A DNA stretch of 64,000 nt from Amoebidium appalachense (GCA_963693365.1 CAVNZM010000011.1:4968639-5032638), one strand, 5' to 3'; shown: positions 44,139 to 62,262, numbered from the stretch's first letter. The notes: generated by a model not told the origin, from the letters alone. Program-made: numbers and translations.

Positions 44139-47100
44139 TCAGCTGATCACACATCCATTAGGCAATTTGTCTGTCTGCGGCACACCCAGGAAAACCCCAT
44201 TCACCCCAGCACCACTATCCGCCATTCCTTGCATTTCCGGGTCCTTAGACCTAATTTTCTCGATTCGAATCGACAGAAATCGTCGCAATTTCGAGGGGGG
44301 ATCCTTCATTGTTGGTGAAGTAGGGGAGGTGGGTGTGGTGCTTAAACTTTTCGTAGAGGTGAAACTTGCAGTGCGACTGAATGCCAGGGGGGAGGACCCG
44401 TGGGAGGGGGAGTGGGGGCTGGTGGGGGCGTGCTGGGTGGGTGGGTTGGCCATCGTGGTGGCCATGAACCTGTGTGTGTACGTGTGTGTGTGTGTGTGTG
44501 TGTGTGTGTGTGTGTGTGTGTGTGTGTGTGTGTGTGTGTGTGTGTGTGTGTGTGTTTGTGACGGTGTGTGTATGTGTGGGTCTGTGTGTGTGTTGTTTTG
44601 GGGGGGGCGGGGGGAGAGGGGGGGGGGAGGGGGGGGGGTTGACGCAGGCAGGGTAGGTGGAAATTGTGTCATTAGTGGAACATATGACACCAATTGAAGT
44701 ACAACGACGGCCAGTGTCATGAAAAAGTGCAATTAGAGACGAACAAACAAGGTATGCTACATAAACGTAGCTCCTAGGACCAAGTCACCCACAACACTCA
44801 ACTTACCGCTCATTCACCTCAGGAGCGAGCCCAATCGGTTTACGGCTACACGGGGGAGCAGGGGGGGGGGGGGGGGGGGGGGGGGGGGGGGGGGGGGGGG
44901 GGGGGTTGGGTTTGAATGCGGAACACGGTACGAACTACGCATACACGATGAGAAGCATGGTGCAGGACACATGCAAAGGCAAACATTCAAGTATGCAACA
45001 TCATCCATGCGCACAGTATGCGTCATAAGCAGAGCCCATCCTCAGGGAGGGCCCAAGTCATCAATTGCGTCTGAGTTTCGACCCCTTAGCCCGCGTATAT
45101 ACGACTCTCCAACTCAGACAGCAGCATCAACTGAACTTGGGAGGGTCAACCCGTCTTCGTGGGAGGGGGGGGGGGAAGGGGGGAGGGGAGGGGAAAGTGG
45201 GGAGGGGGTAGGGGGGAGGGGGAGGGGGGGGGGGGGGAGGGGGGGATGTTTACACATTCGGATCGTCGTGTGTGTGTGTGTGTGTGTGTGTATGTGTGTG
45301 TGTGTATGTGTGTGTGTGTGTGTGTGTGTGTGTGTGTGTGTGTGTGTGTGTGTGTGTGTACACGTGCACGGACCCGTGTGTATGTGTGTGTGTATGTGTG
45401 TGTGCGTGTGTGTGTGTGTGTGTGTGTGTGTGTTTGCGCAGACATGTGCATGTGCGTGCGTGCGGGTGTGTGTGTGTGCATGTGTGTGTGTGTGTGTGTG
45501 TGTGTGTGTCTGTCTGTCTGTCTGTGTGGTGATGGTGGAGGAAGTAATTGGGGATTGTGGGGAGGAAGGGGACGGGAAAGGGTGGGGGGCGGGATGGGGA
45601 GGGTGCGGGGAAGGGGGGGGGGGGGGGGGGGGGGGTATGCATACTGAGCCACGAGGGTGAATGTCCCCTTCCAGGCCACCAATAGGCTGGGATCCATGTT
45701 GGGCCCATAGGCAGTGGCTACGGTCTGAACTAGTGCCTGTGTGTGTGTGTGTGTGTGTGTGTGTGTGTGTGTGTGTGTGTGTGTGTGTGTGTGTGTGTGT
45801 GTGTGTGTGTTTGCAAGTGTGAGTGGTGAGTGAGTGAGTGAGTGAGTGTGAGTGTGAGTGAGTGTGTGTGTGTGTGTGTGTGTGTGTGTGTGTGTGTGTG
45901 TGTGTGTGTGTGTGTGAATAGTGAGTTGAGTGAGTGATTGTGTGTGTGTGTGTGTGTTTGTGTGTGAGTGGTGGGTGAGTCAGTGAGTGAGTGTGTGTCT
46001 GTGTGTGTGTGTGTGTGTGTGTGTACACGCACGCACGTGTGAGTGTATGTGTCGTTGTGGATGCGTATGTGTGTGTGTGTGTGTTCGGTGGGGAAGGGGG
46101 GGGGGAGGGGGGACGACCTAAACATCTATCGGGGGGAGGGGGGATTGGGGGGGCAGCATGTGGGACACATTACGAAGGAAGGATCCAACAAGAGTAGAAT
46201 AGCGGTGTAGCAGCGATTGATTGCTTTCTTGAAGTTACCTACAAAGTCAACCGAATACAATCTCGTTCTGCAGTTAGCCTTAAATGTATCTATATCAGCC
46301 TCTTCCTCCTGTGCACCGGACGTCGTAACGCCGATGCTCAAAAAAACAACAAATATATAGTACGGGCGGGGTGGAGGGGGGGGGGGGGGGGGGGGGGGGG
46401 GAGGGGGGTTTATTTACCTCCACGGCAGCGACGAAGAAAGCGGGCTGCATGGCCGGATATGTCGAGTGGTTGATTGCTATTCGGTGCAAATCGTGCATGC
46501 CTGGTACCGTATCGGCGCGGAGGAGCGACTCCAATATGTTGCTCATTACTTGGTCCTGTGGTGAAGGGGGGATGAGTGGGTAAGAAGAGAGGAAATAGGA
46601 GAGGAGTGTTGTGTGTGTGTGTGTGTGTGTGTGTGTGTGTGTGTGTGTGTGTGTGTGTGTGTGTGTGTGTGTGTGTGTGTGTGTGTGTGAGGGGGAGGGG
46701 GGAAGGGAGGGGTTGAAAGGTTGAATGTGGGGGGGGGGGGGGGGGGGGGGGGGGGGGGGGGGGGGGGGGGGGGGGGGAGGAGGGGGCTTGGGACGAAGGG
46801 GGGGGAGTGGGGAAGGTGGAGGATTGGTAGCGATCGATCTAGAGCAGTTGCCCGTTTTTAACAAACTGATCATAAGTCTTCAACGTGTTAAAATATGTTG
46901 AGAAATGGGCCGTAGTCAGTCAGTGCAGACATTACAGTACATGTTGTTCATAAAGGTATCCCCCCCCCCCCCATCCCCTCCCCCCTCCTCTCTCCGAAAG
47001 ATGGGGTTTGTGCAATCAATCTGGGGATAATGGCAACTTTTGGTGATGTTTCAAAACTCACCATCCGGGGGGAGGGGGATGGGAGGGAAGGGGGGACGAC

Positions 47101-62100: not shown

Positions 62101-62262
62101 GTTAATCTGAAAATTAAAATAGAAAAATGAAAAACGAAATAAACACACCCACCATACTTACAGTGAGAGGGAATACTTGTCGTTGATGAACTTGGCCAGC
62201 CCCCGCCACCCGAGGTCGGACTTCTCTTGCTCCTTAGCGACCATGGCTCCTTCTCTCATCAT
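44139..62262 (-). CDS. Multidomain protein RGS-globin-RGS-globin with C-terminal CaaX, 749 aa, 21 coding exons
   Basis: Exons 62262-62162, 61445-61338, 60567-60477, 60043-59955, 58837-58750, 58232-58140, 57258-57145, 56159-56019, 55594-55503, 54403-54373, 53834-53764, 52617-52554, 51965-51866, 50827-50763, 49811-49690, 48821-48689, 47890-47777, 47307-47236, 46555-46418, 45736-45645, 44469-44139 (2250 nt, in phase). RGS motifs: [35 protein letters not shown] and [23 protein letters not shown]. Globin motifs: IIESTWQTV..LGLKHAR..EAWGTV and [32 protein letters not shown]. Ends CVIS*. Confidence 0.85.
44911..45157 (-). repeat. Near-identical partial copy of the 452 bp repeat, in the last intron of the RGS-globin gene
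   Basis: tttgaatgcggaacac...gcccatcctcagggagggcccaagtcatc...gtttcgacccc...gtcaacccgtctt, with a few substitutions. Confidence 0.88.
57910..58145. repeat. ~60 bp degenerate minisatellite (about 4 units) starting at the exon 6 donor of the RGS-globin gene
   Basis: Recurrent gtaccaat...cagaa(t/c)aacc(a/g)t...ttgcat..cctac.tcgat. Confidence 0.7.

Follow-up and report, generated by a model that had tools for sequence, protein, structure and literature searches.

The locus at positions 44139-62262 of the window, by which we mean the whole 64,000-nucleotide stretch of Amoebidium appalachense DNA analysed here, raises the question of whether a eukaryotic protein could bring gas or redox input to G-protein signalling through globins fused directly to RGS domains. 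G-protein signalling is normally receptor-driven. An earlier note on this DNA proposed that 21 exons splice in phase into 749 amino acids (aa), that the product has the order RGS-globin-RGS-globin-CaaX, and that each globin could gate the GAP activity of its own RGS domain. To answer the question, one needs to know whether the gene is real and where it ends, whether the folds are present, and whether the residues that RGS domains and globins depend on are kept.

Gene structure and extent of the protein

The region 44139-62262 is eukaryotic DNA in which short exons lie amid GT, CA and poly-G/C repeats. Rebuilding the gene from the window DNA gave 21 minus-strand exons separated by 20 introns of 424-1175 nt, of which 19 are GT-AG and one is GC-AG (donor GCAAGT, after 48689). 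The spliced exons form a single 2250-nt frame encoding 749 aa plus the stop and ending in CVIS. A search with exon 19 led to one protein among 6 candidates, P0001 (885 aa), which is the independently assembled transcriptome ORF m.31657 under an accession that names Amoebidium parasiticum, an ichthyosporean. The 749-aa gene model is identical to residues 137-885 of P0001 at 749/749 positions, so that all 21 exons are found in one ORF and the in-phase splicing claimed earlier holds.

At the exon 6/7 stretch, two runs from a single sample yielded RNA-like contigs that covered both exons and skipped the intervening intron, apart from repeat noise and a single intronic contig of low depth; two further runs gave nothing useful. 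The contig offsets agree with the joint 58140/57258, and the loose contig end is exon 8 sequence. These runs are possibly the same data as P0001 and therefore lend no independent support; the splice joints other than exon 6/7 rest on P0001. The gene is real and spliced. Its features in the window are as follows.

63066..63157, minus strand: exon overlooked earlier; encodes P0001 aa 106-136, the G and H helices of a globin further upstream
62162..62263, minus strand: exon 1, an internal exon with its acceptor at 62263; end of the upstream globin H helix and linker
61338..61445, minus strand: exon 2; linker
58140..60567, minus strand: exons 3-6 (60567-60477, 60043-59955, 58837-58750, 58232-58140); first window RGS (P0001 aa ~206-320)
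54373..57258, minus strand: exons 7-10 (57258-57145, 56159-56019, 55594-55503, 54403-54373); middle globin (aa ~321-450)
51866..53834, minus strand: exons 11-13 (53834-53764, 52617-52554, 51965-51866); inter-module linker of low model confidence
48689..50827, minus strand: exons 14-16 (50827-50763, 49811-49690, 48821-48689, the last with the GC donor); second window RGS (aa ~531-650)
45645..47890, minus strand: exons 17-20 (47890-47777, 47307-47236, 46555-46418, 45736-45645); shared RGS/globin helix and last globin (aa ~638-783)
44139..44469, minus strand: last exon; Ser/Thr/Pro-rich tail, short basic helix (aa 836-849), CaaX CVIS and stop

The GC-AG intron (48688-48683, minus strand) is needed for the frame and agrees with P0001, and an alternative GT donor for exon 16 was rejected because it breaks the frame. 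The acceptor of exon 7 (57258-57270, minus strand) reads AAG after an A run and has no adjacent pyrimidine tract; the contig offsets fit this site. Many other acceptors of the gene follow (CA)n repeats, and several donors read GTGTGT. A tRNA-Ser(AGA) gene lies at 62440-62521 on the plus strand, within an intron of the RGS-globin gene and on the strand opposite to it.

The protein had been thought to start at 62262. We rejected the ATG at that position as the start codon because 62263 is a splice acceptor and P0001 continues upstream, where the window holds the extra exon 63157-63066. Residues 1-105 of P0001 lie beyond the window end and, together with this exon, make up a third, upstream globin, which provides both the best Pfam Globin stretch of P0001 and its best PDB sequence match (E 0.0012). 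One contig reaches ~600 nt beyond the first Met of P0001 in the upstream direction. A phmmer search also returned P0003 (E 1.7e-25), which is ORF m.31658 and comes from the assembled transcript that also carries m.31657. P0003 reads RGS-globin-RGS and stops after RGS helix 6, and P0001 starts in RGS helix 8; on the module profile, P0003 reaches position 93 and P0001 continues from position 110 of one module. Because P0003 supplies the complementary upstream part on the same transcript, the two ORFs probably represent one protein of four RGS-globin modules with a CaaX end, split in assembly. Alternatively, the split may reflect a true lesion or a retained-intron isoform; the DNA for the join lies outside the window. 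The two-module architecture once taken for the whole protein gives way to a longer one, in which there are three or more globins and probably four modules.

In each of the three P0001 globins, helix G is interrupted by a phase-0 intron and helix H by a phase-2 intron, at identical alignment columns, and the exon between these introns is 92 nt long in all three. As judged from these features, the globins arose by duplication within the gene. The identity among the Amoebidium modules is only 14-32%.

RGS and globin folds in Amoebidium and its relatives

Pfam RGS (PF00615) matched P0001 at 53.6 bits against a cut-off of 23.9, in 2 stretches, and Pfam Globin (PF00042) matched the whole of P0001 at 29.9 bits against a cut-off of 22, also in 2 stretches. 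When single exons were scanned (19 of the 21), no RGS or globin match was obtained from Pfam, because the exons are too short. A profile built from the non-Amoebidium modules only gave scores of 54.1 and 68.6 bits for the two window modules, as compared with 3.1 bits for the best of 200 shuffles, and the family module profile covers all three P0001 globins.

A structure predicted by AlphaFold from the single sequence was unusable (mean pLDDT 38.6). With a 25-sequence alignment the mean pLDDT was 70.3 and most core blocks reached 85-97; the pTM of the whole model was 0.41, and the arrangement of the domains is therefore not predicted. Being built from the family alignment, the model is not independent of sequence similarity. 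The second window RGS matches RGS4 with a Z score of 12.5 (rmsd 2.6, 111 aligned), and the first matches the RGS-type domains of Axin and SNX13 (Z 12.8; for the Axin RH domain, rmsd 6.8 with 132 aligned). The top fold match of the last globin is neuroglobin (Z 16.3, rmsd 1.9, 129 aligned), at an identity of 18% that says nothing on the binding surface. For the middle globin, the list of structural matches has one entry of its own, the N-terminal domain of RsbR (Z 12.1, rmsd 2.9, 126 aligned), and this match is weak because only the best alignment is given per entry; the list hardly sampled the middle and upstream globins. The distal region of the middle globin is poorly modelled (pLDDT < 50 at 360-362 and 367-370).

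Foldseek with the full model returned no match at E <= 0.001, though globins and RGS5 appeared at probability 1.0. Two regions submitted to the ESM Atlas gave no usable match, NCBIfam gave no match, a plasmid search gave one weak globin-like match (E 0.06), and a word-indexed search with the whole protein found nothing beyond P0001 itself. Pfam scores above cut-off, the family profile and the predicted structure agree on RGS folds and globin folds at the stretches where the earlier note had placed them, with the middle globin being less directly tested.

How widespread, then, is this combination of domains? A phmmer search of 1.84 billion representatives returned 39 non-self matches, all with a Pfam globin and 8/39 also with an RGS domain, and a profile search added 3 more proteins with both. 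The complete RGS-globin-RGS-globin-CaaX order recurs in two proteins of the vampyrellid Leptophrys vorax, which we take to belong to Rhizaria, and in P0031 and P0033. P0024 likewise has a CaaX end, its sequence starting within the first globin, and P0013 and P0049 are tandem relatives cut short at the C-terminus. The loci of P0033 are intronless and adjoin ORFs resembling eukaryotic housekeeping genes, the names of which are our presumed assignments. A single RGS-globin module is found in two proteins of the stramenopile Chrysoparadoxa australica and in one other protein; none of the three ends in CaaX (0/3), and a bactofilin domain precedes the module in 2/3. Tandem CaaX forms and single modules thus both occur outside Amoebidium. 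The bactofilin-RGS-globin proteins are P0034 and P0035, one of them from Chrysoparadoxa australica, in which a polymer-forming domain is joined to the RGS-globin module. Four other proteins (P0016, P0019, P0022 and P0023) carry two globins and an MCP signalling domain, and score to Pfam Globin rather than mainly to Protoglobin.

In a globin tree of 49 rows, made by a quick method with one domain per non-RGS protein, the Amoebidium globins did not group with the other RGS-fused globins, and their branches were very long (3.65 and 2.61 changes per column). One clade of all RGS-fused globins was not rejected by the AU test (p 0.498). A single origin is therefore neither shown nor excluded by the tree.

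Junction, membrane anchor and functional residues

Between the Phe of RGS helix 7 and the A12 Trp of the globin, the spacing is 30 in 3/3 measurable Amoebidium modules and 31 in 14/14 measurable modules from elsewhere (1/15 was not measurable). In the AlphaFold model, continuous helices at 300-352 and 632-667 span both junctions, such that the RGS end and the globin A helix are one helix. The constant spacing suggests one homologous module, and the predicted fixed-length helix of the conserved junction could transmit a signal. The fixed length may also be a matter of common descent or packing rather than signalling.

The C-terminus reads CVIS before the stop, which bears out the CaaX end noted earlier, and the same type of motif closes 5/5 tandem-module relatives with an intact C-terminus (CIIS, CTVM, CIIS, CTVS and CLVM). 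Among the 53 proteins collected, all 9 CaaX-like ends fall in tandem-module RGS-globin proteins. Ser at the X position of CaaX is a farnesylation signal. With this predicted prenylation and the basic helix that precedes the motif, the protein would sit at the membrane.

The critical G-alpha contacts of RGS domains are Asn88, Asn128 and Asp163 of RGS4, according to the available portion of PMC8252600. At these positions the first window RGS has Thr, Asp and Gly and the second has Met, Pro and a gap. The positions were mapped onto the family through RGS8, for which we assume both the numbering link from the RGS8 motifs to RGS4 and the assignments of Glu87 and Arg167. Since both window RGS domains lack all three equivalents, they resemble non-GAP RH domains, and gating of a GAP by its own globin, which the earlier note had proposed for each module, is unlikely for these two. 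From their residues, the window modules are not canonical RGS GAPs. They share their fold (Z 12.5-12.8) and Pfam family with the canonical GAPs RGS4, RGS8 and RGS16 as well as with the non-GAP domains of Axin and SNX13; unlike in canonical RGS, the last helix runs into the globin A helix. Loss of GAP activity has been described for some RGS domains, in the accessible text of PMC3971589.

The upstream modules are different. Module 2 of P0003 keeps the equivalents of Glu87, Asn88 and Asn128, and its module 1 keeps the Glu and Asn128. Among the relatives, Glu87, Asn88 and Asn128 equivalents are present in 7/9 first or single modules, and either Asn (88 or 128) is kept in 0/6 second modules. These counts reveal a family pattern in which the N-terminal RGS is intact and the RGS nearer the membrane anchor is degenerate. 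The Asp163 position is not occupied by Asp in any family module, so even the best of these RGS domains lack one of the three critical contacts.

The F8 His is kept in 4/4 Amoebidium globins: His89 in the upstream globin, the two that had been pointed out earlier in the window (His394 in the middle globin and His729 in the last), and that of the P0003 globin. The CD1 Phe is present in 1/4, namely the last globin (Phe692), and is replaced by Ile, Ile and Thr in the other three, where the register of the middle globin is uncertain. Position E7 is Lys in three Amoebidium globins. The middle globin, with F8 His394 kept, CD1 Phe absent and Glu at B10, is the most altered of the window globins, its distal register being uncertain. 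In the relatives, CD1 is Phe in 15/15 modules and F8 is His in the 14/14 modules that cover that column; E7 is His in 11, Gln in 3 and Asn in 1.

Comparison with known systems and possible function

The fusion of RGS and globin domains, of which the earlier note knew no description, has a prior record. The architectures /RGS//Globin/ and /Bactofilin//RGS//Globin/ are listed in a supplementary figure of de Mendoza et al. 2014 (PMC3971589), a survey that included Amoebidium RNA-seq. The first is the same domain pair in the same order as here, and the second is the architecture of our relatives P0034 and P0035. In the main text of that paper, as far as it is available, the word 'globin' occurs 0 times and the fusion is listed without comment; the list contains no repeat structure, CaaX, residues or function, unlike the present description. 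A literature search of incomplete coverage, mostly without subscription papers, found neither a functional study of RGS-globin fusions nor any account of the tandem CaaX architecture. The domain pair was catalogued before and apparently never studied, and we found neither the tandem architecture with its CaaX end nor the shared-helix module of three supergroups described earlier.

Globin-coupled sensors, e.g. HemAT, DosC and AfGcHK, have an N-terminal sensor- or protoglobin-type domain before an output domain. Like the Amoebidium protein, they fuse a globin to a signalling output, with ligand control proposed. In the Amoebidium protein, by contrast, the globin comes after the output domain, is repeated and is neuroglobin/flavohaemoglobin-like, and the output would be eukaryotic G-alpha regulation. 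Pfam Protoglobin gave no match on P0001 at E up to 10. The protein is not one of the bacterial sensor globins, even if it may function in a similar way.

Another parallel is neuroglobin, a 3/3 globin in which the state of the haem is coupled to the control of heterotrimeric G proteins at membranes, as we propose for the Amoebidium protein; the ferric form is a GDI for G-alpha i/o, which sets a redox-dependent precedent. Unlike the Amoebidium protein, neuroglobin is single-domain, acts in trans and has no RGS (PMC4842972, in the portion available). Globin chimeras are essentially absent from animals except for androglobin and the nematode GLB-33, which resemble the present case in placing a globin within a multidomain signalling protein and differ in their partners, calpain/IQ or a transmembrane receptor vs RGS here (PMC13331133, partial text). 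RGS is unmentioned in the accessible part of PMC4101818.

What would such a protein do? The reading we put forward, with a little less than even confidence, is a prenylated, membrane-tethered haem sensor that tunes G-alpha shut-off by gas or redox state. Farnesylation of the CaaX end and the basic helix would hold the protein at the membrane beside G-alpha. The globins with a proximal His, most safely the last one, would bind haem. A change in ligand or redox state would then travel along the single predicted helix that combines the RGS end with the globin A helix at the constant spacing measured above. The GAP activity would be supplied by upstream RGS domains that lie outside the window and keep the Glu and Asn contacts; the two window RGS domains, having lost the Asn contacts, may be non-catalytic scaffolds or docking sites for G-alpha.

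An unlikely alternative, which still deserves consideration, is co-localisation without allostery, in which the globins are NO dioxygenase, redox or O2-buffering units that the RGS domains and CaaX only position. This would suit globins whose closest structures are flavohaemoglobin-like and neuroglobin, and it would explain why the Asn contacts are missing in the window RGS domains and in all 6 second modules of the relatives. However, Pfam found no reductase domain in P0001, the junction keeps a fixed length in three eukaryotic supergroups, and the G-alpha contact residues are kept in 7/9 first modules.

It is quite unlikely that most of the Amoebidium globins have decayed to haem-free structural domains of the RsbR type, leaving a membrane scaffold or a plain RGS array. 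The F8 His survives in 4/4 globins despite the 14-32% identity between modules, and the last globin has both its CD1 Phe and the neuroglobin match at Z 16.3. These observations have to be set against the absence of the CD1 Phe from 3/4 globins, the B10 Glu of the middle one, the very long branches, and the RsbR N-terminal domain as the specific, if weak, fold match of the middle globin.

There is only a slim chance that, in one redox state, G-alpha is bound by the globins themselves, in the manner of a GDI, with the degenerate RGS domains as a second surface, so that G-alpha is sequestered rather than its GTPase sped up; neuroglobin is both the precedent for such activity (PMC4842972, partial text) and the top fold match, and the RGS contacts are lost, but a fold match at 18% identity is uninformative on the binding surface. 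Improbable, too, is the earlier reading that all modules, the two in the window included, are active GAPs, each under the control of its own globin: both window domains preserve the RGS fold well, the junction geometry is conserved, and divergent RGS surfaces could suit lineage-specific G-alpha in ichthyosporeans, which have 22-119 RGS proteins (PMC3971589, accessible text), but the equivalents of Asn88, Asn128 and Asp163 are all missing in both domains.

To return to the membrane-tethered haem sensor, a broader and more doubtful version of this reading is possible. In it, the shared-helix RGS-globin module would be an ancient, receptor-free haem switch on G proteins that was kept in opisthokonts, rhizarians and stramenopiles, and that in Amoebidium was amplified to a prenylated four-module array, whose catalytic and pseudo-RGS units and varied globin pockets would integrate O2, NO or redox signals. 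If the globin is rigidly fused to the RGS domain, gas or redox input would act directly at the shut-off step, a control that we otherwise found described only in trans, in neuroglobin. Because the module occurs in a unicellular organism closely related to animals as well as in two further supergroups, it is relevant to the pre-animal wiring of O2/NO sensing into signalling. The family is small and its individual domains are soluble and readily expressed; its natural pairs of intact and degenerate RGS domains make the gating idea directly testable.

Some further features were observed elsewhere in the window. A gene at ~5219-5625 (plus strand) has few introns compared with its neighbours and is, from its translation, presumably a ubiquitin-conjugating E2 of the UBE2D/Ubc4 type. 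Two candidate exons at ~27641-28746 (minus strand) resemble by their motifs what we take to be a carbon-nitrogen hydrolase of the N-terminal amidase type. A 103-nt candidate exon occurs twice with the same translation, at 23335-23437 and 23787-23889 (plus strand), the two copies being 452 nt apart as a local duplication.
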